A DNA stretch of 32,000 nucleotides from Synechocystis sp. PCC 6803 substr. PCC-P. Lineage in GTDB: Bacteria > Cyanobacteriota > Cyanobacteriia > Cyanobacteriales > Microcystaceae. The translations under genes were made by a program, and so were the position numbers. Below, piece by piece: positions 15,915 through 27,298 of this stretch; within the stretch, counting starts at the first letter, position 1; each line of letters starts with the position of its first letter. Under the pieces are notes generated by a model. It was not told the origin of the DNA, made no database searches, and saw only the letters and a program-made list of their open reading frames with translations. The DNA lies in NCBI RefSeq assembly GCF_000284455.1, contig NC_017039.1, positions 1,050,001-1,082,000 on the forward strand, read 5' to 3'.

Positions 15915-18900
15915 CTAAAAAGGTAGATCTTCTTCTTCCTCCGGGGCGATCGCCGGTCGGTTCAGGACGGTGGGTTGGTTAATTTGCAGATGTCCATTGT
16001 GATCCATGGGTTGCTGACCAAGTTCCGCCGTTGGTTCCGTAGATAAATCATCGCCATTATCCGATTCCTGTTTGGGAGCCGCATCGGATGCCACAATTTC
16101 CCCGTCAAAATTTTTGGCAAACTGCTCGATCGCCTTGCGGGTGGCACTGTCACCAATATCTGTCGGAGGCGGCTCTTCCATGGCTGGAGCCGGTTTTGGT
16201 TTGGGCCGAGAAGGATTAGAGAAATTATTTGATTCCCGTCGGGGGGAAGGTTTTATTTCCGATGTAGCGGGGCCCCTGGCGATCGCCGGGGGAGAAGGAG
16301 GCACAGTGGGAGCCGGATTAGCATTAACCGCTGCGGTGGGGGGAGGGCTTGGCTCTGGAGCAAAGGCTGGCGGCTTACTATGGCTAGGGGGAGGAGCGCT
16401 GTTAACCGGAGTAGTTTCCGGGGTCGATGGCTTACCCACCACCAAATTCACTTTCACCGATTGGCCACAGGCTTGCCCTAGGGCCGCTTCCAATTCATCC
16501 TTTTTGCCCGCCGCAATTTTAAGCAGTTGTTGGGTGGTAACACTGACGGTGGCATTATTCCCCACCAAATTGATCAAAGAACCAAAGGATTTAAATAAAG
16601 ATTGACTGAGCGCCCCTAGATTGTTTAACGTTTCCGACCATAACTGGGTCAGATCCCAATGGGCGTTGCTCGGCTCAAAGCTGGATGGCTCTACATCTGC
16701 TTCTAGCTTCTCTTCTAGAACAATAGGTTCAGAAACAGGAATCATTGTAGGAGAATCCACCACGGTTAGATGGTTGTGTGAGCCACCAGGGAAAGTCACC
16801 ACATTACTGGGCTTTGGCGGAGTTATTGGTTGAGCCACAGGTGTTCTAACTGCCGTTTGACTAACTGCCCCAGTGTCCAACCCACAGGCGGATGGCAACA
16901 GCCCCAACAGGGTCACCTCTAGCCAAAGTCGGGGCTGGGTAGTGTTACGAATTTGGATTTCACTTTCCTTAAGTTTTTGTTGTCCTTGCAAAATCACTCC
17001 CCTTTGCCATTGGGGCGCCGTGTCACACAGGGCTTGCCAGGTTTCCGCCGTCACCGCCACCAAATCTGAGCGTTGGGGAGCTGTTTGGGCAATAAGTAAA
17101 TTCAAATAAAAACTGGCTAAATTTTGCAATACCACCAAGGGTTCCCGCCCCCGGTTCAAAATCTGCCGACAGGTAGCCAATAGGGTTTCTGCATCGTCAC
17201 TGGCGATCGCCTCTAGGAGGGCTAACAAATCCTGTTCCGGCACCGCCCCCACGAGGTCCCAAACTTTATCGGGGGTAATCAGGTCGGGGAGCAGACTTAA
17301 TTGATCGAGTAAACTTTCCGCATCCCGTAAACCACCATTGGCAATTTGGGCCACTAGGGTCAAAGCTGGTTGGTCAATATTAATATTTTCTCGCCCAGCA
17401 ATATAACGGAGATGGTCCACCATGGCCTGCAAAGGAATGCGGCGATAATCAAACCGCTGACACCGGGAAATAATGGTGGGTAAAACCCGCTGGGGATCGG
17501 TGGTAGCGAGGACAAAAACAACCCGCTCCGGTGGCTCTTCCAAGGTTTTTAGCAGGGCATTGAATGCGGCCGTGCTCAACATATGACAGTTATGGACTAG
17601 TAAGCCATTGGCAACAAAATTGTGATTATCTTCCACCTCCAGGTCATAAACTTTTTCCACTTGACCCTTAGTGACGGACTCAACTTCCTCGAAATTTGTA
17701 TGCCATTGCGGGGATGGAATAGATTTCCAAGTCCGATAACCACTTGCGGGTGGCCACTGCTCCCATTTTTGTGTAGTAATAGGTTTTGCTGTTAATGCTT
17801 CTGCGATAGGATTTTGCACTGGTGGGATATCCTCTATCGGTAAGCCATTCAGCAATAAGTTGATTTTCTTCCGGGAAAAAGCCCTCTGTGTGTAACTGAA
17901 TTGATGGACTCCCAGATTCGGAAATAGAGAGGGAACCGTCGTCCATGTACCACCAAGCCATTCCTTCTTCAGTGATATGCGAGAGCCATTCCGAAGAAAC
18001 TTGTTTTCTTTTACCTCCAGGTTTGACTGTGCTGAAAACATCAATAAGGTTTGGGGAACAACGGGTTTGACAGCAGATGGAACTTTCCCCATAGCCTTTA
18101 TTGGCTGTGAATCGTATTTTGGGTGACAGACATCCCAGTCTTGCCGCTTTATATTCCATCCATTCTGACTGCTTGGTGCCGTGGGTCCATCGCAAGCGGG
18201 GGAATCGGCTATGTGGGTTGGGATAGTCAATACTTCCATCCCCAAGCAAGGTTCCGTAGATAAGACCGAGAATTTCTGCTCCCAACGGTTCTGACCCTGA
18301 TGTAATTTTTTCTGTTCTGAGATCCCAAAGTCCGTGGCTTTTTTTGTAGGGATGTCTTCGCCAATGGGATTGGATACTTTTAATTTCTCTTCCTTTGCAC
18401 TGCAAAAATGCTGGAATATCAAGTTTTTCGCCACATCCGCATTGACAAAAGGGTCTTGTGGCTTCTGCTTCTTCAAGGATAGAGATAAGGTCGTATTTTT
18501 TTTGTCCGTATTGATTGCCTCGTAGTTGATGGCCCCGGACAAACCGCCTAAGCTTGCGGTCAGTGCCGTACTTTGCGATAAATTGTCCACATCCACACTC
18601 GCAGGGGATAGTATCTTCATTCCGGGAGTGATGTTTTCCGCTCTCGTCCATCCTTGTTCAGTTCTGATTAAATGGTTAGCCGTACACCGTACTGTAGAAT
18701 TTTTTGTCTTAATAGACAATGTTTGCTTTTCGCCTCTGTCAAGCCATCTTAAAACTTTTTTATATTCCCATTGCTGTAGAGTTTCGTTGTAGCTCAGAAC
18801 TTCTCGCCCTTTTATTTGGGGATTGTCAATGGACATTAAGCCATTGCGGGTCAAAACTTGTGAGTCCCCCGTTAAGCATTCATCGATCACATATACTTTA

Positions 18901-19265
18901 TATCTGCACTGTACTGGGGCAAATTGAGCCCGTTCAATAATTTCTCGGATATTATCTACCCCTGTATTACTGGCCGCATCAATTTCAATTACGTCTAAAG
19001 CTGAACCGTTAGTAATAGCCCGACAGGTGGCACATTGGCCGCAGGGAGTGGCAGTAGGCCGATCGCCAGCGATGCAGTTTAAGGATTTGGCTAAAATTCG
19101 GGCTGAAGAAGTTTTTCCCGTTCCCCTGGGGCCCGTAAATAGGTAAGCAGGTACGATGCGCTCCTGTTCAATGGCATTGCTCAATGTGGCGGCGATCGCC
19201 GTTTGGCCCACCAAATCTGCAAAGGTCTGGGGGCGATATTTATGGTGCAGAGGTTCGTAGGCCAT
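15915..19265 (-). CDS. dnaX: DNA polymerase III subunit tau/gamma, interrupted by an in-frame intein
   Basis: The N-terminus YRPQTFADLVGQ...FTGPRGTGKTS (Walker A), the CGQCATC zinc module, and KVYVIDE followed after the intein by CHMLSTAAFNALLKTLEEPP are canonical DnaX. The C-terminal part is long and Pro/Ala-rich. Confidence 0.95.
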   Translation of the reverse strand: MAYEPLHHKYRPQTFADLVGQTAIAATLSNAIEQERIVPAYLFTGPRGTGKTSSARILAKSLNCIAGDRPTATPCGQCATCRAITNGSALDVIEIDAASNTGVDNIREIIERAQFAPVQCRYKVYVIDECLTGDSQVLTRNGLMSIDNPQIKGREVLSYNETLQQWEYKKVLRWLDRGEKQTLSIKTKNSTVRCTANHLIRTEQGWTRAENITPGMKILSPASVDVDNLSQSTALTASLGGLSGAINYEAINTDKKNTTLSLSLKKQKPQDPFVNADVAKNLIFQHFCSAKEEKLKVSNPIGEDIPTKKATDFGISEQKKLHQGQNRWEQKFSVLSTEPCLGMEVLTIPTHIADSPACDGPTAPSSQNGWNIKRQDWDVCHPKYDSQPIKAMGKVPSAVKPVVPQTLLMFSAQSNLEVKENKFLRNGSRISLKKEWLGGTWTTVPSLFPNLGVHQFSYTQRAFSRKKINLLLNGLPIEDIPPVQNPIAEALTAKPITTQKWEQWPPASGYRTWKSIPSPQWHTNFEEVESVTKGQVEKVYDLEVEDNHNFVANGLLVHNCHMLSTAAFNALLKTLEEPPERVVFVLATTDPQRVLPTIISRCQRFDYRRIPLQAMVDHLRYIAGRENINIDQPALTLVAQIANGGLRDAESLLDQLSLLPDLITPDKVWDLVGAVPEQDLLALLEAIASDDAETLLATCRQILNRGREPLVVLQNLASFYLNLLIAQTAPQRSDLVAVTAETWQALCDTAPQWQRGVILQGQQKLKESEIQIRNTTQPRLWLEVTLLGLLPSACGLDTGAVSQTAVRTPVAQPITPPKPSNVVTFPGGSHNHLTVVDSPTMIPVSEPIVLEEKLEADVEPSSFEPSNAHWDLTQLWSETLNNLGALSQSLFKSFGSLINLVGNNATVSVTTQQLLKIAAGKKDELEAALGQACGQSVKVNLVVGKPSTPETTPVNSAPPPSHSKPPAFAPEPSPPPTAAVNANPAPTVPPSPPAIARGPATSEIKPSPRRESNNFSNPSRPKPKPAPAMEEPPPTDIGDSATRKAIEQFAKNFDGEIVASDAAPKQESDNGDDLSTEPTAELGQQPMDHNGHLQINQPTVLNRPAIAPEEEEDLPF
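17589..18878 (-). mobile_element. intein (430 codons) in the DnaX Walker B/sensor region
   Basis: The TGC Cys1 codon is at 18876-18878 (CLTGDSQVL, block A) and TANHLIRT is block B. The intein ends ...VYDLEVEDNHNFVANGLLVHN (AAC at 17589-17591). The +1 Cys follows at 17586-17588 (CHMLS). Removing it restores VYVIDE-CHMLS. The length, 1290 nt, is divisible by 3. Confidence 0.92.
17680..18651 (-). CDS. double-motif LAGLIDADG homing-endonuclease-like ORF nested in the intein, out of frame with dnaX
   Basis: 323 codons with an ATG start, offset 614 nt from the dnaX start (not a multiple of 3). LGLIYGTLLGDGS is at 18232-18270 and MAWWYMDDGSL at 17929-17961, about 100 aa apart. The N-terminus has two CxCGCG...H modules. 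Confidence 0.6.
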   Translation of the reverse strand: MDESGKHHSRNEDTIPCECGCGQFIAKYGTDRKLRRFVRGHQLRGNQYGQKKYDLISILEEAEATRPFCQCGCGEKLDIPAFLQCKGREIKSIQSHWRRHPYKKSHGLWDLRTEKITSGSEPLGAEILGLIYGTLLGDGSIDYPNPHSRFPRLRWTHGTKQSEWMEYKAARLGCLSPKIRFTANKGYGESSICCQTRCSPNLIDVFSTVKPGGKRKQVSSEWLSHITEEGMAWWYMDDGSLSISESGSPSIQLHTEGFFPEENQLIAEWLTDRGYPTSAKSYRRSINSKTYYYTKMGAVATRKWLSDLEIYSIPAMAYKFRGS

Positions 19266-19432: not shown

Positions 19433-19864
19433 ATGACAGGCCCCGTTATTTTTCACCTCGCTATCCCCGTTAATGATATTGCGAAAACTAAGGAATTTTA
19501 CTGTGATCGCCTGGGGGCCAAGGCCGGCAGAGAAACCGATAAGGCAATAATTCTAGATTTCTACGGCCATCAGGTGGTGGCCCACATTACCCTGGAACCT
19601 TTAGTAAAACAACCGGGCATCTATCCCCGCCATTTTGGTTTAGTATTTCCTGTCGAAGCGGATTGGTTTGCTTTTTCTGAACAGGTGGAAGCGGCCGGAG
19701 TGCCCTATCATTTGCCGCCCAAGTTACGCTTTGCTGGAGAATTGACGGAACATCGCACTTTTTTCCTAGCTGACCCCTTCCATAACTATCTGGAATTCAA
19801 ATGGTATCGTCACCAGGAAGCAATTTTTGATCTGAAAGAGTTTCTGGCCATTGGCGATCGCTAG
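19433..19864 (+). CDS. VOC (glyoxalase/bleomycin-resistance/dioxygenase) family protein
   Basis: 143 aa. FHLAIPVNDIAKTKEFYCDRLG is a typical VOC beta-alpha-beta-beta-beta N-terminal module. Confidence 0.75.
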   Translation: MTGPVIFHLAIPVNDIAKTKEFYCDRLGAKAGRETDKAIILDFYGHQVVAHITLEPLVKQPGIYPRHFGLVFPVEADWFAFSEQVEAAGVPYHLPPKLRFAGELTEHRTFFLADPFHNYLEFKWYRHQEAIFDLKEFLAIGDR

Positions 19865-19920: not shown

Positions 19921-21957
19921 TCAATTCTGGCGTGATCCGGGCCCTTCCGGTCTTGGTTGACCATCAATGTAGGTAGCTAAATCCCAGGCCTCTTGATCCG
20001 TCAACACTCCATCAAATTGATAGGGCATATTACCGTGGATAAATTCTGCCAAAGTATTAATCCTCGCCATCCCCGCTTGGCGATTGAAGGAATTGGGGCC
20101 CCATAGGGCTGGGCGATAATAGGTGTCACTGCCATAGCGACCCTGGCCCAACGCACCGTGGCAAAAAGCACATTTCTGCTCAAAAATTGCCTGGCCTTGA
20201 TTTGGATTCCCCGTCAGTTTGGCAATGGGGGGATAGGGGGTTTTGGGCAAATCGATGTTCAATACCTCTGCCTGTTCATCCAGCCACTGCATATAGCTGA
20301 TAAAAGCTTGGAAATCGGGACTATCGGCGGTAATGGTCAGAGGTTTGCCGTTGAGGCTATGTTCAAAACAAAGATTGATCCGTTTCTGTAAATTGATGGT
20401 TTCTGGATATTGATATTTTTTCATCATGCCAAACCAGGAAGATGCTTTCGGATTAGCCCCGGCATTGAGGTGACAACTAGCGCAATGAAGCTTGGCAGTG
20501 AGCACAAATTCTGGCATTTCCTCATAGGTTTCGGTCGTTAATTGATAGCCCCGCAGAATACTATTCCAATGCTGATTATCCCAAGCCGTTACCGGTTCAT
20601 CGGGGGGAGAAACAACTTGAGGATCAATTTGGGTCGGGAGGGCATCGGCAAAGGTAAAACTAAAATCCGCCGAAGCAAATTTTTTGACATTACTACTCCG
20701 GGCCATGGCGTGGCATCCCATACAGGAAGATGTCCCCTGGATATAGGTTTCCATGGTGGTATTGGCTAACAGGGCTGGTAGAACGTGAAAAACGGTGTCG
20801 GGGCTTTTATCCGCCGCTGATTTGGGGATAGCCCATTGAGCATTGATTAATTCATAATTGGCCCAAACGGAATCTTTTAACCCTGCTTGTACAAGGCGGT
20901 TAAGCTCGGCAACGTTATCCACTGCTTTGGTGGGTTGACTGCAATCCGGGTCTTGGTGGGGAATAGGAGTTCGGCGAGTGACTTGGTTGGGAACACCAAG
21001 AATGGTTTGTTTGTTGGTCAAGCAATTAACGCACCGATCGCCGTGGAAGGAGAAAACGGTATTGGCAGAACCACTGTGGTTTAAACCGGGGACATTATCC
21101 ACCTGTTCATAGGTGGACCAAATCCACTGGGGCGCACTGGGAGTTTTATACATAATGTGAAATCCCACCAAACCCATCTGTTGCAGTTGATATTTCCCTG
21201 TGGTTAAATCCTGCACATAGGCCGGTACATTGTGAAAACGGCCGGATTCCTCCGGGGTAATTTCCCGCCAAGCGGCCTTAATTAAAATGGAGCCATCAGG
21301 GGCATTAATTTCGGGTAAAAGAGCCTGTTGTTCTGGGTTGTAAAGTTTATTTTTCACCACATAATCAAACAACACCTTATTCATGCGAATTTCATAGCGC
21401 ACCACATTGCCCCACTGATCGGTCAAAGTTCCGGGCAATGCCCCATCAGCTTTGGTGGGTTGAAATTCATCATTGAGTACTTCATCCACCTTGCTTTGAC
21501 GAAATAAAATTTTCGTTCTTCCATCTCCTTTCAAACCATTGGGTAAAGGTTCATTACTATTCCATGGCTGCGGCACTGCGCCATTGGGCAAATAAACTTC
21601 GCTGGTTTCTTTCCAGGTTTCCCACACCCTTGGGCCGGGAGCATTGATGGCTAAATTTTTATCCGGCACTCCCCGATCGCCGTCGCCAACTATAGCGGGC
21701 CAGTTTAGGGCAATGAATTCTTGCCAAGCAAAGGTATCCACCGCCCGTTGGACAACATTGAAATTCTTTTGCTTGAGTTCCCCTTCCACGTCTGCCGGTA
21801 ACTGCCAACTGATGGCAAGGGGAGATAATTTGGCATTACAAACCCCAGGCAAAGTAATAGTAGCAACGGTTTTAGAGCTTACTGGAGTTACCAGGGAAAA
21901 AAACAGCACAAAAATAATCACAACTAGGGCATAGGCCGTAATTCTTCCTATTTTCAT
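19921..21957 (-). CDS. secreted c-type cytochrome: unknown ~450-aa N-terminal domain plus a TsdA-like dihaem C-terminal domain
   Basis: It has a Sec-type signal peptide (MKIGRITAYALVVIIFVLFFSLVTPVSS) and three CxxCH motifs (CMGCH, CASCH, CAFCH). CASCHLNAGANP...INLCFEHSLNGKPL and CAFCHGALGQG...PALWGPNSFNRQAGMAR...FIHGNMP resemble thiosulfate-dehydrogenase-type dihaem cytochromes. An SD-like AGGGGGA lies upstream of the ATG. Confidence 0.8.
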   Translation of the reverse strand: MKIGRITAYALVVIIFVLFFSLVTPVSSKTVATITLPGVCNAKLSPLAISWQLPADVEGELKQKNFNVVQRAVDTFAWQEFIALNWPAIVGDGDRGVPDKNLAINAPGPRVWETWKETSEVYLPNGAVPQPWNSNEPLPNGLKGDGRTKILFRQSKVDEVLNDEFQPTKADGALPGTLTDQWGNVVRYEIRMNKVLFDYVVKNKLYNPEQQALLPEINAPDGSILIKAAWREITPEESGRFHNVPAYVQDLTTGKYQLQQMGLVGFHIMYKTPSAPQWIWSTYEQVDNVPGLNHSGSANTVFSFHGDRCVNCLTNKQTILGVPNQVTRRTPIPHQDPDCSQPTKAVDNVAELNRLVQAGLKDSVWANYELINAQWAIPKSAADKSPDTVFHVLPALLANTTMETYIQGTSSCMGCHAMARSSNVKKFASADFSFTFADALPTQIDPQVVSPPDEPVTAWDNQHWNSILRGYQLTTETYEEMPEFVLTAKLHCASCHLNAGANPKASSWFGMMKKYQYPETINLQKRINLCFEHSLNGKPLTITADSPDFQAFISYMQWLDEQAEVLNIDLPKTPYPPIAKLTGNPNQGQAIFEQKCAFCHGALGQGRYGSDTYYRPALWGPNSFNRQAGMARINTLAEFIHGNMPYQFDGVLTDQEAWDLATYIDGQPRPEGPGSRQN

Positions 21958-21988
21958 GCCATTATTCCCCCTTGGTAGTTATCAATAA

Positions 21989-23173
21989 TTATGGTTGGGT
22001 TGGTAGAGAAAAAATCGTGTCTTGCACTGGTAACTTTTTAGTTAATTCCGGCGAAATTTGGAAAGTATTCCCCAACACCGAGCTAGGATTGCTAGCTAAC
22101 CAAGTACTCAGATCAATACTTTGATAATCCCCATCATTGAAAACCACCACAATATCCAACGGCTTTTGGGAACTGTTGCGGATGGCATGGCCATAACCCT
22201 TGGGCACATAGCCCACATCTCCCTGCTGGAGACGACTAACGCTGGCTTTACCTTCGGAAGCAAAAACGGTTAAATCCATCTCCCCATCGAGCACATATTG
22301 CCACTCGTCCGCGTTGGGATGCCAATGGAGTTGACGCATGGCTCCCGGTTCTAAATGAATTAAAGCGCCGGTCATATTAAAACTGCCGGGAAATTCCTTG
22401 GCGCTGGCTAGCCTCAATTCGTTGCCACCCAGGGAAACTAGGGGTTGTTGCCCCAGGAGATTATGGGTGTGGGGAACTTCAATTTTGGCCGTTTGCCCCT
22501 GGGGAGTTGCGCTAGCCAAGGGGCCAGAAGCCGGGCCGTAGGAGGAAATGTAAACCTGTTTTTTGGGTAATTGGGCTACCTGGGCCGCCGTCCAACCTAA
22601 ATTTTCTTCCACCCAGGCGATCGGAGTGTGGGAAAGCCAATCAGTAACGCTAAAGGTTGCCCCTTCAGAAAAGGTGCCGTCGTTGAATACCAGCAAAAAT
22701 TTGGCAGTGTCGGGACCAATGCCCTCAATGCTGTGGCCCCAACCCCGGGGAAAATACCAAAGCCCTCCTTTGTCCACATCGGCAATTTCCACTTTGCCTT
22801 CGGGACTGGTGAGGGTAATCCGGGTTCTGCCTTCCATGACATAGGCCCATTCCGCCGCGTTGGCATGCCAATGTAATTCCCGAATCGCTCCGGGCTCCAA
22901 GCTCATATAAACCCCCGCCATCCCCTTGCTGACGGGAAAGTTATAGGTACCCACCTGTTTAGTGGTGCCGCCGTCGTAAAGCACTAGGGGAGTTTTGCTA
23001 AAGGCATAGGTAAAAGCTGGTAAATCCTTACCCCAAACCACGTTGGAGAGCGATCGCCATTGTTCACTTTGGGCAATGGTTGGAGTAAAAATCCCTAAAA
23101 AAGTTATCAGTAAAACACTCAATCCTACTAGTAAAAACCGCCGTCTCAACCATCCTATTACCGAGTTGACCAT
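21989..23173 (-). CDS. mncA: periplasmic bicupin (oxalate decarboxylase/oxidase-like), MncA-type Mn-cupin with a twin-arginine signal
   Basis: 394 aa. It has the Tat motif WLRRRFLLVGLSVLL and two cupin motifs (ELHWHANAAEWAYVMEG and QLHWHPNADEWQYVLDG). I recognise it as the MncA-type protein of Synechocystis, from recall. Confidence 0.8.
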   Translation of the reverse strand: MVNSVIGWLRRRFLLVGLSVLLITFLGIFTPTIAQSEQWRSLSNVVWGKDLPAFTYAFSKTPLVLYDGGTTKQVGTYNFPVSKGMAGVYMSLEPGAIRELHWHANAAEWAYVMEGRTRITLTSPEGKVEIADVDKGGLWYFPRGWGHSIEGIGPDTAKFLLVFNDGTFSEGATFSVTDWLSHTPIAWVEENLGWTAAQVAQLPKKQVYISSYGPASGPLASATPQGQTAKIEVPHTHNLLGQQPLVSLGGNELRLASAKEFPGSFNMTGALIHLEPGAMRQLHWHPNADEWQYVLDGEMDLTVFASEGKASVSRLQQGDVGYVPKGYGHAIRNSSQKPLDIVVVFNDGDYQSIDLSTWLASNPSSVLGNTFQISPELTKKLPVQDTIFSLPTQP

Positions 23174-23334
23174 GGTGATACTGGAATAATCACAATCCAG
23201 TGATAAAAGGTGACGAAAGTTGTCTTTATCTGGACGGTAAACGAAGATTGAAGGGCCAGTAACAGTGTCTTAACAAAATGTAACTGATGCTCAGGACTGG
23301 GTTTTTACAGTGCAATAGAGGCAGGTTAAGGTAA

Positions 23335-25884
23335 CTATTTATTAGGAGAAATTAACAAACATTGACCATCGGGACAGAGGTCTTCTAATTCAATTACCAC
23401 GGGTTTGATAGCCCAGATGTCTTCGGCGTATTCCCGAATAGTGCGATCCGAGGAAAACTTACCCATGCGAGCCACATTTAAGATGGCCATGCGAGCCCAG
23501 TTTTCCTGATCTTTATAGGCTTCTCCCACTTGGTTTTGACAATCCACATAGGCTTGGAAATCGGCAAATACAAGGTATGGGTCTTGACCCAACAAGGAAT
23601 CCATTAAGGGGCGAAATAATGCTGTGTCACCATGGGAGAAAAAGCCAGAATTAATCAGATCTACCACAGCTTTTAAGTTGGCATTATTGTTGTAATATTC
23701 CCAAGGTTGATAGCCTTCCGCCAAGGTTTTTTCCACTTCTGGAGTGGTGAGGCCAAAGAGGAAAAAGTTTTCTGCCCCCACCTCTTCTCGAATTTCAATA
23801 TTTGCCCCGTCCAATGTGCCAATGGTTAAAGCTCCATTCATGGAAAATTTCATATTGCCGGTGCCGGAAGCTTCTTTGCCAGCGGTGGAAATTTGCTCGG
23901 AAAGATCAGCGGCGGGATAGACCCTTTGGCCAAATTTAACGTTATAGTCCGGCAAAAAGATAACTTTCAGGCGATCGCCAATGGTGGGGTCATTATTAAC
24001 TACATCTGCCACGGAGTTGATCAGCTTGATGATTAATTTAGCGGTAAAATAACCGGGGGCTGCTTTACCACCATAGATAAAAGTACGGGGTGTAACATCC
24101 AGATTAGGATTATTTTTAATCTGCAAATAAAGATGGATAACGTGGAGAATATTCAAATGTTGCCGTTTATATTCATGGATTCGTTTTACCTGCACATCAA
24201 ACAGGGAATCGGGATTAACCACTAAGTCAGTTCTGGTGTGGATATAGCGAGCTAAATCCTGCTTAACTTCCCGCTTAACTTTGCACCAATCCTGTCGGAA
24301 TCCAGCCAAATCAGCAAAGGGTTCCAGTTGTTTTAGCTCGTCTAAATTTTTAATCCAGCCATCACCAATGCGGGAAGAAATTAAGTTACTCAGGCGGGGA
24401 TTACTGAGCACCATCCAGCGCCGGGGGGTAACGCCGTTGGTTTTATTGCTAAATTTTTCTGGCCAAAGTTCGTAAAAGTCTTTAAGAATAGTCTCCTTCA
24501 CCAGTTGACTATGCAACGCCGCCACCCCATTAATGGCATGGGAACCCACCGTGGCCAGATAGGCCATCCGCACCGACTTTTCTCCTGCTTCGTCAATGAT
24601 GGATAACCGGGCCAGGCGATCGCCATCGTTGGGATATTTCATCCGTACTTGATCTAGGAAACGTTGGTTGATTTCGTAAATAATTTCCAAATGGCGGGGT
24701 AACATTTCGCCAAACAGGGGCAAAGACCATTTTTCCAATGCCTCCGGTAGCAAAGTGTGATTAGTAAAACCAAAGGTGGCTTCGGTAATGGCCCAAGCCC
24801 GTTGCCATTCATAGTGATGCTCATCCACCAACAGACGCATCAGTTCAGCCACCGCAATGGAAGGATGGGTGTCATTCATCTGCACCGCAAAATGTTCGTG
24901 GAAATTCTCCAGGGTGGGATTGTCCGACAGGTGAATGCGAATCATGTCCTGCAAAGAACAGGAAACAAAAAAGTATTGTTGCGCCAGCCGTAACTCTTTC
25001 CCCTGAATCTGTTCATCGTTGGGATAGAGCACTTTAGTGAGATTTTCCGAGGACATTTTGTCCTGCACTGCCCCGTAATAATCCCCCACATTAAACCGTT
25101 GAAAATCAAAGGATTCCGCCGCTTCCGATTTCCACAGGCGCAAATTATTGGCGGTGCTGACTTTGTAGCCCAAAATGGGAGTGTCATAGGGAATGCCTTT
25201 GACCAAACTGCCGGCAATCCAACGCACCCGATAATTACCTTGGTCATCGGTGTAGGGTTCCGTATGGCCCCCCAGTTTGACTAACACAGCGGATTCAGGA
25301 CGGGCAATTTCCCAAGGATTACCCAGTTGGAGCCATTTATCAGTGATTTCCACCTGCCAACCGTCTTTAATTTCCTGGTCAAAGATACCGAATTCGTAGC
25401 GGATGCCGTAGCCGATCGCCGGAATTTCCAACGTAGCCAGGGAATCCATAAAGCAGGCGGCCAAACGACCTAAACCACCGTTGCCCAACCCCGGTTCTTC
25501 TTCAATATCAATTAACTCATCCAAGCTCAACCCCGATTCTTCCACCGCCTGTTGCACCGGCTCCCATAGCCCTAAATTAATTAGGTTATTACCCAAATGG
25601 GGCCCCAGCAAATATTCCGCCGACAGATAGCACACCACCCGATTGTCACAGTTGAGATAGGTTTGGAATGTATTTAACCACCGTTGCAGGAGGCGATCGC
25701 GGATAGTGTAGGCCAGGGCCATATAACAATCGTTTTTAGTGGCAATGGCGGGAAATTTACCCTGGAGATAAAACAAATTGTCTGCCAAAGCCCGCTTGAG
25801 GGTTTCCACGCTCAGACCAGTGCGGTCATCCTCCACCTGAATGAGGGGATTGGTGGTGTTAAAAGCCATGGGAAGGTGCTCCAT
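23335..25884 (-). CDS. glgP: glycogen (alpha-glucan) phosphorylase
   Basis: 849 aa. It has GLGNGGLGRLAACF and the PLP-lysine region EASGTGNMKFSMNGALTIGTLDGANIEI. The start may be the second Met (MAFNTT). Confidence 0.95.
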   Translation of the reverse strand: MEHLPMAFNTTNPLIQVEDDRTGLSVETLKRALADNLFYLQGKFPAIATKNDCYMALAYTIRDRLLQRWLNTFQTYLNCDNRVVCYLSAEYLLGPHLGNNLINLGLWEPVQQAVEESGLSLDELIDIEEEPGLGNGGLGRLAACFMDSLATLEIPAIGYGIRYEFGIFDQEIKDGWQVEITDKWLQLGNPWEIARPESAVLVKLGGHTEPYTDDQGNYRVRWIAGSLVKGIPYDTPILGYKVSTANNLRLWKSEAAESFDFQRFNVGDYYGAVQDKMSSENLTKVLYPNDEQIQGKELRLAQQYFFVSCSLQDMIRIHLSDNPTLENFHEHFAVQMNDTHPSIAVAELMRLLVDEHHYEWQRAWAITEATFGFTNHTLLPEALEKWSLPLFGEMLPRHLEIIYEINQRFLDQVRMKYPNDGDRLARLSIIDEAGEKSVRMAYLATVGSHAINGVAALHSQLVKETILKDFYELWPEKFSNKTNGVTPRRWMVLSNPRLSNLISSRIGDGWIKNLDELKQLEPFADLAGFRQDWCKVKREVKQDLARYIHTRTDLVVNPDSLFDVQVKRIHEYKRQHLNILHVIHLYLQIKNNPNLDVTPRTFIYGGKAAPGYFTAKLIIKLINSVADVVNNDPTIGDRLKVIFLPDYNVKFGQRVYPAADLSEQISTAGKEASGTGNMKFSMNGALTIGTLDGANIEIREEVGAENFFLFGLTTPEVEKTLAEGYQPWEYYNNNANLKAVVDLINSGFFSHGDTALFRPLMDSLLGQDPYLVFADFQAYVDCQNQVGEAYKDQENWARMAILNVARMGKFSSDRTIREYAEDIWAIKPVVIELEDLCPDGQCLLISPNK

Positions 25885-26070: not shown

Positions 26071-26709
26071 ATGGCGACAACAGCGGATGAAGTGTGGCAA
26101 CTCCTGGGAGAGCTAGTCCAAGTCCAGAAGGAACAAAGAGAAGAATCGGCACGAATGCGTCAAGAGGCTGATCGCCGTTCTCAGCAAATGGATCGCCGGT
26201 TTTAAAAACAACGGGAGGAGTCAGAGCGAAGATTTCGAGAAACAGAGCGTTTGCTGAAAGAACAAAGCCAACGGGTAGATGAACAAATAGGAAAATTGGG
26301 CAACCGGCTCGGGGAATTTGTGGAATCCCAGGTGCGGCCGGCGGCGGTGCGATTATTTCGAGAATGGGGCATTGATGTCCAAGAAATTTCCTCTGATGTA
26401 TCTCTTCAGACCAGTCAAGATGGCATTGAAATTGATATTTTGGTGGTGAATGGCACAGAGGCGATCGCCATTGAGGTGAAAAGTAAATTAAGCCAGGATG
26501 ATGTGGATGAACACCTGGAAAGATTGGGTAAATTTAAGCGACTTTTGCCCCGTTATCAAAATTTTAATCTTCTTGGGGCAGTGGCAGCCATGGTTATTCC
26601 GGGTGATGTGGCTCGCTATGCCTATAAAAAAGGGTTATTTGTAATTGCCCAATCGGGGGAAGATTTGGTCATTCTTAATGATGAGAAATTTAAACCCAAG
26701 GCCTGGTAA
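26071..26709 (+). pseudogene. PD-(D/E)xK nuclease-fold protein (DUF3782-like) interrupted by an in-frame TAA at 26203-26205
   Basis: The ATG at 26071 opens MATTADEVWQLLGELVQVQKEQREESARMRQEADRRSQQMDRRF, then a stop. The same frame continues KQREESERRFRETERLLKEQSQ... into the track ORF (26251-26709; 26251-26071=180). That downstream part has no ATG near its start. A D...ExK motif is present (EIDILVVNGTEAIAIEVKS). Confidence 0.65.
26461..26468. repeat. HIP1 octamer GCGATCGC (example copy)
   Basis: Read directly at the start of line 26461. Confidence 0.95.
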
Positions 26710-26728
26710 AACACCCAAATTTTCATCG

Positions 26729-27298
26729 TTAGCGTTGTCGGGTCATGGCCATTACGTCATTAACAGTCAAAGTCAAAAGATTGTCTAACGTGGGTGGATT
26801 TTCCAGTCCCTGATAAATTAAAGGTAACGATTCCTGATTCCAAACCCAGATTTGTTGACGATAAATATCAATGAGCCAAGCGAGTTTTGTCCCATTAGTC
26901 AAACAATGCAGAATTTTGGTTTGCAGGCTAAGAATATTTTGATCGGGGGACAGAATTTCGATTAACCAGTCCGGCGCTCCCTTCAATGGCCCGTCTTCCT
27001 CCGCCAGGAGATTGCTTTTTACAACGGCAATGTCAGGTACGGGGGAAAATGGGGGCACAATACAGCGCAATTCCTGAATGGCCTCATAATCCCTGGTTTG
27101 TGCATTAATGACGTTGACCAGATTACGCTGTAGGCGGGAATGAAACAACGTCGGCATGGGTTTCTGCTGGGCCTGCCCCCGGATAAATTCCCAGGCTGGG
27201 GAAGCCTCAATTTCTGCGCGTTGTAGAAACAGATCGAGATTGTCAGTGAGCAGAGGTGACTGCATTATCTGCACAGCCCAAGGGAATAGGTACTCCAA
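26729..27298 (-). CDS. Uma2-family (DUF820) putative restriction-endonuclease-like protein
   Basis: 189 aa in the track, from a TTG start. The likelier start is the ATG giving MQSPLL (27265). EFIRGQ...PMPTLFHSRLQ..., PDIAVV and PDWLIEILSPD match the Uma2 pattern that is common in cyanobacteria. Confidence 0.75.
   Translation of the reverse strand: MEYLFPWAVQIMQSPLLTDNLDLFLQRAEIEASPAWEFIRGQAQQKPMPTLFHSRLQRNLVNVINAQTRDYEAIQELRCIVPPFSPVPDIAVVKSNLLAEEDGPLKGAPDWLIEILSPDQNILSLQTKILHCLTNGTKLAWLIDIYRQQIWVWNQESLPLIYQGLENPPTLDNLLTLTVNDVMAMTRQR

Follow-up and report, generated by a model that had tools for sequence, protein, structure and literature searches.

The DNA considered here is a window of 32,000 nucleotides (nt) from Synechocystis sp. 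PCC 6803 substr. PCC-P (NC_017039.1, positions 1,050,001 to 1,082,000), and all coordinates below are those of this window unless another locus is named. The subject of this report is a pair of genes on its minus strand, mncA (sll1358) and sll1359, which code for an exported manganese cupin and for a predicted exported three-haem c-type cytochrome. The explanation that we prefer, and to which we give an about even chance of being right, is that mncA-sll1359 is a lineage-restricted two-gene operon of two exported metalloproteins, which share regulation and compartment and do not form an obligate enzyme-cytochrome couple, Sll1359 being autonomous. The gene pair is real and is likely an operon. 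However, the case for a redox pair is weak, the evidence for a mechanistic link is thin, and a two-component periplasmic oxidoreductase, as proposed by the sequence-only reading of this DNA, is not established.

The mncA-sll1359 gene pair and its distribution

The gene mncA (21989-23173, minus strand) codes for a protein of 394 amino acid residues and sll1359 (19921-21957, minus strand) for one of 678 residues. They are arranged head to tail with a spacer of 31 nt (21958-21988), in which the Shine-Dalgarno (SD)-like sequence AGGGGGA (21966-21972) sits 8 nt ahead of the ATG of sll1359. Both open reading frames (ORFs), their strand and spacing, and the SD-like site are as the sequence-only reading had given them. 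On the upstream side the gene of glycogen phosphorylase, glgP (23335-25884, minus strand), is separated from the start of mncA by a spacer of 161 nt (23174-23334), presumably the promoter region of the pair. On the downstream side a small gene of the VOC/glyoxalase family (19433-19864, plus strand) converges on the pair. The order glgP (sll1356), mncA (sll1358), sll1359 and dnaX (sll1360, intein-bearing) agrees with the published table. Since the bicupin is the crystallised Sll1358 and the gene order is as published, the pair is identified as mncA-sll1359.

To judge from the sequence, mncA and sll1359 are very probably one transcription unit. This is suggested by the short gap in which sll1359 has its own SD-like site, by a scan with consensus sequences and by a parallel response in a lexA mutant. 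The scan revealed no promoter- or terminator-like minus-strand site in the 31-nt gap or in the 161-nt glgP-mncA spacer; it gave fewer sites than shuffled sequence and is informative only as to the absence of an obvious terminator. In the RNA sequencing data for a lexA mutant, mncA was at 0.38x and sll1359 at 0.49x, while the flanking glgP was at 0.78x and dnaX at 1.81x. Neither gene of the pair is listed in the transcriptome comparison of strains PCC 6714 and PCC 6803, and neither is mentioned in the supplements of the CRISPR interference (CRISPRi) fitness studies. The earlier operon claim is upheld as far as the gap, the SD-like site, the parallel fall in the lexA mutant and a gene order that recurs in other genomes are concerned; co-transcription itself we infer from these.

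The first protein of the pair, MncA, is already well known. Its residues 35-394 are 100% identical to the 'SLL1358 protein' of PDB entries 2VQA and 9GOF. It matches two Cupin_1 domains (E 1e-58) and the model TIGR03404 bicupin_oxalic with 333 bits at a cut-off of 254, which places this Mn(II) bicupin in the oxalate decarboxylase family. The signal peptide for twin-arginine translocation (Tat) comprises residues 1-34 (23072-23173, minus strand), in which RRRF (residues 10-13) precedes a hydrophobic stretch. The crystallised chain begins at Q35, and export by Tat is stated in PMC4192464. The metal motifs HWHANAAE of the N-terminal cupin (residues 101-108; 22850-22873, minus strand) and HWHPNADE of the C-terminal cupin (residues 283-290; 22304-22327, minus strand) align with the Mn sites of Bacillus subtilis OxdC, and the fragments GWGH and GYGH complete the HxH(4)E...H pattern of the Mn site in each domain. 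The two HWH...E motifs, of the common form HWHxNAxE, and the twin-arginine signal noted in the sequence-only reading were both confirmed. OxdC and MncA are aligned at E 2e-83; both His3Glu Mn sites are kept in MncA, and its lid SEGAT keeps the Glu of the OxdC lid SENST. However, OxdC is cytosolic and MncA is Tat-exported.

The sequence-only reading had regarded the substrate of MncA-type cupins as unknown. This needs to be corrected, as oxalate decarboxylase activity of Mn-MncA in vitro has been reported (PMC4192464, PMC11742986) and the protein has been termed 'an MnII-dependent oxalate decarboxylase' (PMC11742986). The decarboxylation of oxalate proceeds with no net redox change (PMC3765361), and therefore the known reaction of MncA needs no electron-acceptor protein. 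The published structure shows the two Mn sites buried in the protein, with a narrow channel that reaches only one of them (PMC11742986). The physiological role of MncA is debated, with a Mn store and an oxalate enzyme as the two proposals (review PMC7020235). The surroundings of some relatives were also recorded. Proteobacterial MncA-like bicupins with 60-62% identity (locus L065, 6001-8394, and the contig of P0184) are convergent to a gene of an FMN-dependent alpha-hydroxy-acid dehydrogenase/oxidase (Pfam FMN_dh), with a glutathione S-transferase gene close by. Such neighbours agree with a role in the metabolism of glycolate, glyoxylate or oxalate, and less with cytochromes.

It is important to ask whether the cupin and the cytochrome travel together in other genomes. 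In Synechocystis salina (locus L001), Vulcanococcus limneticus (L007) and Synechococcus UW140 (L004) the cupin gene is likewise followed by the cytochrome gene, on one strand and after a short gap. The pair is also kept in Synechococcus elongatus (L062, with a gap of 19 nt, L070 and L071), where it is flanked by genes of DnaJ and HypD, unrelated to the glgP and VOC-family flanks of Synechocystis. In the metagenome-assembled genome (MAG) of Synechococcus sp. UW140 the MncA-like gene (L004, 7623-8775) is split over two frames, either as a frameshifted pseudogene or by an error of assembly. Even at a permissive threshold, only three of the 61 genome loci with the cytochrome (L001, L004 and L007; S. 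elongatus is additional) have a cupin within 10 kilobases (kb); for 50 of the 61, the available upstream sequence is 1.5 kb or longer. In about 57 of the 61 loci no cupin lies within 10 kb, and four of the loci without it are cyanobacterial (L002, L005, L006 and, in Synechococcus PCC 6312, L063). One of these, from Cyanobium sp. N.Huapi 1H5, has just upstream of an intact cytochrome gene a remnant of 35 residues of the cupin C-terminus (L006, 9740-9844; 49% identity, E 6e-07 in a local search). In this strain the cytochrome gene has survived the loss of the cupin. In the annotated examples from Pyxidicoccus, Haliscomenobacter and a Thermoanaerobaculia MAG, the cytochrome is an isolated gene. 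When the ORFs within 6 kb of the cytochrome were clustered over the 61 loci, no gene family was found to recur beside it, apart from spurious ORFs overlapping the cytochrome gene itself.

The same is observed from the side of the cupin. Four MncA relatives with 60-69% identity have no cytochrome nearby. Among 80 metagenomic loci of MncA relatives (39-67% identity), 41 of which have at least 2.2 kb of downstream sequence, neither the N-terminal domain of Sll1359 nor a TsdA domain is encoded beside any of the cupin genes. The genes of a dedicated two-component system would be expected to stay adjacent wherever either is present. This does not hold here: they are adjacent in several cyanobacteria, but each also occurs alone, even within cyanobacteria, and the adjacency is confined to a sub-clade.

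These distributions bear directly on the proposal of a dedicated periplasmic redox pair. According to this proposal the cupin would oxidise a substrate, for example oxalate in the manner of an oxidase, and pass the electrons to the cytochrome; or the cytochrome would oxidise the Mn(II) of MncA to Mn(III) and so activate it. The common strand, the 31-nt gap and the co-regulation agree with such a pair, as does the fact that four or more lineages of cyanobacteria keep the genes adjacent between differing flanks. There is also a second, independent juxtaposition of an MncA-like cupin with a TsdBA-type cytochrome, which is described below. The turnover of oxalate decarboxylase involves Mn(III) and O2, and a redox helper is therefore chemically conceivable. 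However, each family is widespread without the other, the Cyanobium strain kept the cytochrome after losing the cupin, and in the UW140 MAG the cupin is frame-shifted beside an intact cytochrome. In addition, MncA decarboxylates oxalate without a partner (PMC4192464), in a reaction with no net electron transfer. Its buried Mn sites with one narrow channel (PMC11742986) are a poor layout for electron transfer from protein to protein, and the cytochrome has apparent catalytic sites of its own. For these reasons the dedicated multihaem partner of the sequence-only reading is not sustained, and we consider a redox pair in either form quite unlikely.

It could also be supposed that the adjacency has no function at all, the two genes having been inherited or transferred together and not yet separated, with co-regulation arising from read-through. 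Only cupins of a narrow clade, with 69% identity or more to MncA, have the cytochrome beside them, and within cyanobacteria the pair has been broken up several times (L002, L005, L006, L063 and L066), which agrees with this view. On the other hand, the flanks in Synechocystis and S. elongatus differ wholly, and yet the order, the strand and the short gap are kept. Cyanobacteria this far apart seldom share the order of their genes except within operons. An adjacency of this accidental kind appears quite unlikely, and the association of Sll1359 with MncA in some cyanobacteria suggests a shared physiological setting, obligatory for neither protein.

Domain organization of Sll1359

The second protein of the pair has a Sec-type signal peptide at about residues 1-28 (21874-21957, minus strand), consisting of MKIGR, a hydrophobic stretch and the presumed cleavage site VSS/K. 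It contains exactly three CxxCH motifs. All three are invariant in 120 homologues and thus are not chance motifs. The Sec-type leader and the three motifs agree with the sequence-only reading. Altogether 2231 homologues were found, and proteins about 50% identical over the full length occur across phyla, namely in Acidobacteriota, Myxococcota, Planctomycetota, Verrucomicrobiota, Bacteroidota and Proteobacteria. In the literature searched, Sll1359 is mentioned only in passing, in gene lists, as 'predicted cytochrome c' or 'unknown protein'. One paper lists it as a pilin. This assignment was rejected in view of the three invariant haem motifs and the absence of pilin features. The motile 'PCC-M' substrain of PCC 6803 has a substitution of Asn by Lys (AAT to AAA) in sll1359 'at a very conserved position' (PMC3514855); Asn399 and Asn643 are among the invariant Asn residues of Sll1359.

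The C-terminal part, residues 462-678 (19924-20574, minus strand), is a dihaem domain similar to thiosulfate dehydrogenase TsdA, with two class I cytochrome c units that have one CxxCH motif each. A family profile built from 16 sequences matched Allochromatium vinosum TsdA (PDB codes 4WQ7, 4WQC and 4V2K) over residues 462-677 with E from 1e-39 to 9e-41, aligned with TsdA residues 23-236, and matched the TsdBA structure 5LO9 with E 4e-39. The Foldseek match of the Sll1359 model to TsdA has E 1.7e-07. The earlier assignment of the last ~220 residues to the TsdA type is well borne out by these profile and fold matches. Haem motif 2, CASCH (residues 492-496; 20470-20484, minus strand), is invariant and is the counterpart of the active-site haem of TsdA, His53 in the mature A. 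vinosum protein. The codon of Cys530 (20368-20370, minus strand), invariant in the 120 homologues, corresponds to the catalytic, haem-ligating Cys96 of TsdA (Cys123 in the precursor), with RInkCFekSLNG aligned against RIGDCFERSLNG. Haem motif 3, CAFCH (residues 596-600; 20158-20172, minus strand), is the counterpart of the electron-transfer haem, and residues 584-665 around it match Pfam Cytochrome_CBB3 and Cytochrom_C. The codons of Asn643 and Met644 lie at 20026-20031 (minus strand), and Met644 is predicted to be the sixth ligand of this haem.

The pairing of residues was obtained by counting along the printed profile alignment. Residues His53, Cys96, Arg92, Ser100, Gly194, His164 and Met209 of mature TsdA (His80, Cys123, Arg119, Ser127, Gly221, His191 and Met236 in precursor numbering) correspond to His496, Cys530, Arg526, Ser534, Gly629, His600 and Met644 of Sll1359. 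None of the 120 homologues deviates at His496, Cys530, His600 or Met644, and Arg526, Ser534 and Gly629 are invariant in the alignment of 16 sequences. The cysteine of TsdA is a ligand of the active-site haem and holds the thiosulfonate intermediate, while Arg119 and Ser127 bind thiosulfate (PMC4423706). Position 643 is Asn in 119 of the 120 homologues. The pair Asn643-Met644 is found likewise in Campylobacter jejuni TsdA as Asn254-Met255, while A. vinosum TsdA has Lys-Met (PMC5146829). Judged by these residues, the C-terminal module looks catalytically equipped, not degenerate.

The characterised TsdA proteins have no haem domain of about 450 residues such as the one that precedes the TsdA module of Sll1359. 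The TsdBA protein of Marichromatium purpuratum (5LO9) is a precedent for a TsdA module joined to an extra N-terminal haem module with which it exchanges electrons. However, the N-terminal partner there is TsdB, a small dihaem class I cytochrome, while that of Sll1359 is a mono-haem, beta-rich domain of about 420 residues unrelated to TsdB.

This N-terminal domain (N-domain) spans residues 30-450 (20608-21870, minus strand) and carries haem motif 1, CMGCH, at its C-terminal end (residues 412-416; 20710-20724, minus strand). The sequence-only reading had found no match for the first ~450 residues. They belong in fact to a very large family with a remote likeness to the cytochromes P460 and c'-beta. 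A profile of residues 30-450 found 4181 clusters in a representative library clustered at 50% identity, 977 of them at E <= 1e-30. The best 150 matches are mostly stand-alone proteins of about 390-520 residues, and only ~20 are fused proteins of at least 600 residues. The stand-alone N-domains of Wenyingzhuangia and Cellvibrio finish a few residues past CxxCH. This end point, together with the 4181 clusters, indicates that the N-domain is an independent module. The two examples are a protein of 399 residues in Wenyingzhuangia heitensis (L059, 9839-11038) and one of 424 residues in a Cellvibrio MAG (L058, 9863-11137); both keep the lysine described below, and in the former an ORF of 624 residues without a Pfam match begins 20 nt downstream of the N-domain gene. 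The family, with more than 4000 clusters at 50% identity, appears to have no assigned function.

Across 43 divergent members of the family, mostly stand-alone, the invariant residues in full-length Sll1359 numbering are Trp78, Pro129, Lys227, Trp230, Leu263, His267, Asn288, Tyr368, Asn399, Glu403 and Cys412/Cys415/His416. The codon of Lys227 is at 21277-21279 (minus strand), and this residue is also invariant in the 120 fused homologues. In two profile alignments, at E ~0.5, it falls on Lys78 of Methylococcus capsulatus cytochrome P460 (McP460), the residue that is cross-linked to the haem (PMC11928373). The cross-link lysine, Lys70 in the protein from Nitrosomonas europaea (NeP460) and Lys78 in McP460, marks P460 off from c'-beta.

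The comparison with these cytochromes was made in three ways. Firstly, Pfam Cytochrome_P460 (PF16694) is the sole recurrent match of the N-domain. It was found in 19 of 21 fused-type members (best E 4.4e-05, all below the 27-bit cut-off) and, at E <= 0.1 and also below the cut-off, in 6 of the 43 members of the alignment, which are mostly divergent and stand-alone; Sll1359 itself scores 15.2-15.4 bits and does not reach the threshold of 27. Secondly, a broad N-domain profile searched against all PDB sequences matched only M. capsulatus P460, at E ~0.5, and at E<1 the family profiles matched the M. capsulatus P460 chains and one unrelated spike protein. In the alignment with McP460 at E ~0.5, PDGsiLiKaaW is set against PDGAILVKLSW and CMGCH against CMGCH. 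A McP460 fragment of 38 residues padded to 40 gave no match in a profile search, and the link to P460 stays below threshold. Thirdly, the predicted structures were compared. The AlphaFold model of full-length Sll1359 has a mean pLDDT (predicted local distance difference test) of 61, with poor haem-binding parts and weak matches other than to TsdA, and therefore the N-domain was modelled alone. That model has a pLDDT of 73 and a predicted template modelling score (pTM) of 0.82, with the haem region at low confidence. With it as the Foldseek query, the six known P460/c'-beta structures are the top six matches (E 5e-03 to 0.2, probability 0.23-0.75, template modelling (TM) score ~0.3). These three lines are independent and individually weak, and we describe the N-domain, on sequence and model, as P460/c'-beta-like, with its membership unproven.

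The likeness to the P460/c'-beta cytochromes of N. europaea, M. capsulatus and Thermus thermophilus would consist of a predicted beta-sheet core, the C-terminal CxxCH and the invariant Lys in PDGxILxKxxW at the putative place of the cross-link lysine. There are also clear differences. The N-domain has about 420 residues against about 150, being ~2.5x larger, and all scores are sub-threshold. A distal carboxylate, Glu96 in NeP460 and Asp102 in McP460, is required for the oxidation of NH2OH (PMC11928373). The aligned position in Sll1359 is Pro245, in a part of the alignment of low confidence; it varies in the family (P/S/L/T/D/E), and the carboxylate is not conserved.

These observations allow a further explanation of Sll1359, as a P460-type enzyme in which the N-domain haem would be cross-linked to Lys227 and would act on nitrogen species such as hydroxylamine or NO. 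The TsdA-like module would then be an electron wire, and the link with MncA would be regulatory at most. The Cytochrome_P460 match in 19 of 21 members, the colinear lysine and CMGCH in the match to M. capsulatus P460, and the six leading Foldseek matches all point in this direction, as does Lys227, invariant in fused and stand-alone families alike. The occurrence of the N-domain alone in thousands of clusters is also what is expected of a catalytic or ligand-binding unit. However, every one of the signals is sub-threshold (15 bits against 27; PDB E ~0.5; TM ~0.3), the domain is ~2.5x the size of P460, and the position of the distal carboxylate (Asp102 of McP460) is the variable Pro245. Moreover, the invariant catalytic Cys, Arg and Ser of the TsdA type would be unexpected in a mere wire. 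On this evidence we consider a P460-type enzyme of this kind rather unlikely.

Proposed roles of MncA and Sll1359

We return to the preferred explanation, a lineage-restricted operon with an autonomous Sll1359, which can be described as follows. MncA folds and traps Mn in the cytoplasm before export by Tat, and it decarboxylates oxalate with no requirement for an electron-acceptor protein. Sll1359 would be exported unfolded by Sec and would acquire its three c-type haems outside the cytoplasm. In the C-terminal module of the TsdA/SoxA family (~462-678), one haem would have His/Cys ligation (His496/Cys530), beside a pocket that contains Arg526 and Ser534, and His/Met ligation (His600/Met644) is predicted for the second. 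The N-terminal module (~30-450) would be a mono-haem unit with a remote P460/c'-beta-like core and the invariant Lys at the cross-link position. Sll1359 would thus be an autonomous oxidoreductase converting a small anion, most plausibly thiosulfate/tetrathionate, at the Cys-ligated haem, and the electrons would pass via the His/Met haem to or from the haem of the N-domain, which may be a second reactive site or the point of electron entry or exit. The structure of the genes, their motifs, homology, distribution and co-regulation are established by the data, and the ligands of the haems, the substrate and the way in which the electrons run are inferred.

Several points weigh against this explanation. 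Co-transcription of mncA and sll1359 has been deduced from indirect signs, and activity of Sll1359 on thiosulfate/tetrathionate is a prediction from sequence. In the substrate pocket, Arg109 of TsdA (precursor numbering) aligns with Thr520 of Sll1359, beside a deletion of four residues, and this position varies in the family; Arg109 is 'less well conserved' in TsdA proteins too (PMC4423706). Against Pfam SoxA-TsdA_cyt-c (PF21342) Sll1359 scores 15.9 bits at a cut-off of 27. A gene context of sulfur metabolism is absent around sll1359-type genes in most genomes, and sulfur-related neighbours were seen beside the cytochrome only in Pyxidicoccus. The pair has been kept from Synechocystis to S. 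elongatus although its flanks were rearranged, and this speaks for a selective link of some kind, which the preferred explanation does not specify. Finally, at loci L072/L073 (4001-7789) a cupin 71% identical to MncA, in DNA of 67% G+C, lies ~950 nt upstream of a TsdBA-type tetrahaem cytochrome of 547 residues. A DsrE-family gene is located between them on the opposite strand, and the catalytic Cys motif of the cytochrome is RIQGCFTYSMN. This juxtaposition of cupin and TsdA is unlikely to be pure chance and hints at a recurrent association, although it is a single case and no operon.

The Pyxidicoccus loci (L067, 567-5754, and L018) deserve a separate remark. There a cluster of the sulfide-oxidation type is oriented divergently to the cytochrome gene, with a Pyr_redox_2 protein similar to sulfide:quinone oxidoreductase (SQR), a sigma-54 activator, Lactamase_B, rhodanese and TauE. 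A sulfur-oxidation context was considered as a general clue to the function of the cytochrome and was rejected, as a tblastn search found the Pyxidicoccus-type cluster only in the two Pyxidicoccus loci.

A more far-reaching combination of these features can also be imagined. Sll1359 would be an expanded P460-type fold, with a Lys-cross-linked catalytic haem, fused to a competent TsdA module in cyanobacteria and several soil phyla. It would couple the chemistry of sulfur anions to a second small-molecule reaction and, in the cyanobacteria that have MncA, would work with it, for example as a sink or a source of an oxidant or radical in the turnover of oxalate. We regard this combination as very unlikely. 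If it were true, the long-orphan MncA would gain a physiological pathway.

Other genes of the window and significance of the pair

Other features of the window were noted on both sides of the pair. The dnaX ORF (15915-19265, minus strand, 1116 residues) carries its known intein. An ORF of 323 residues (17680-18651, minus strand) is nested in dnaX in another reading frame, with its start offset by 614 nt, and matches Pfam LAGLIDADG_2 with E 5.7e-20. This match means that homing-endonuclease motifs are read here in a frame other than that of the host/intein ORF. On the far side of glgP, positions 26251-27298 hold two small nuclease-like genes, one an ORF of 152 residues with weak PD-(D/E)XK/NERD matches and the other coding for a putative restriction endonuclease of the Uma2 family with 189 residues (E 3.9e-25).

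The novelty of the pair resides mainly in the cytochrome. No description seems to exist of the fusion of a complete TsdA module to the N-domain, or of how large the family of the N-domain is, and a literature search revealed no report linking P460 and TsdA within one protein. For Synechocystis, it is important that MncA is a textbook case of the correct metal entering a protein and that its role is unsettled. A neighbouring gene that is conserved in several cyanobacteria is a testable lead, even if the link is only regulatory. For the family, the characterisation of one member, Sll1359, in a model organism open to genetics would give thousands of proteins an annotation and could extend the P460 or the SoxA/TsdA enzyme family.

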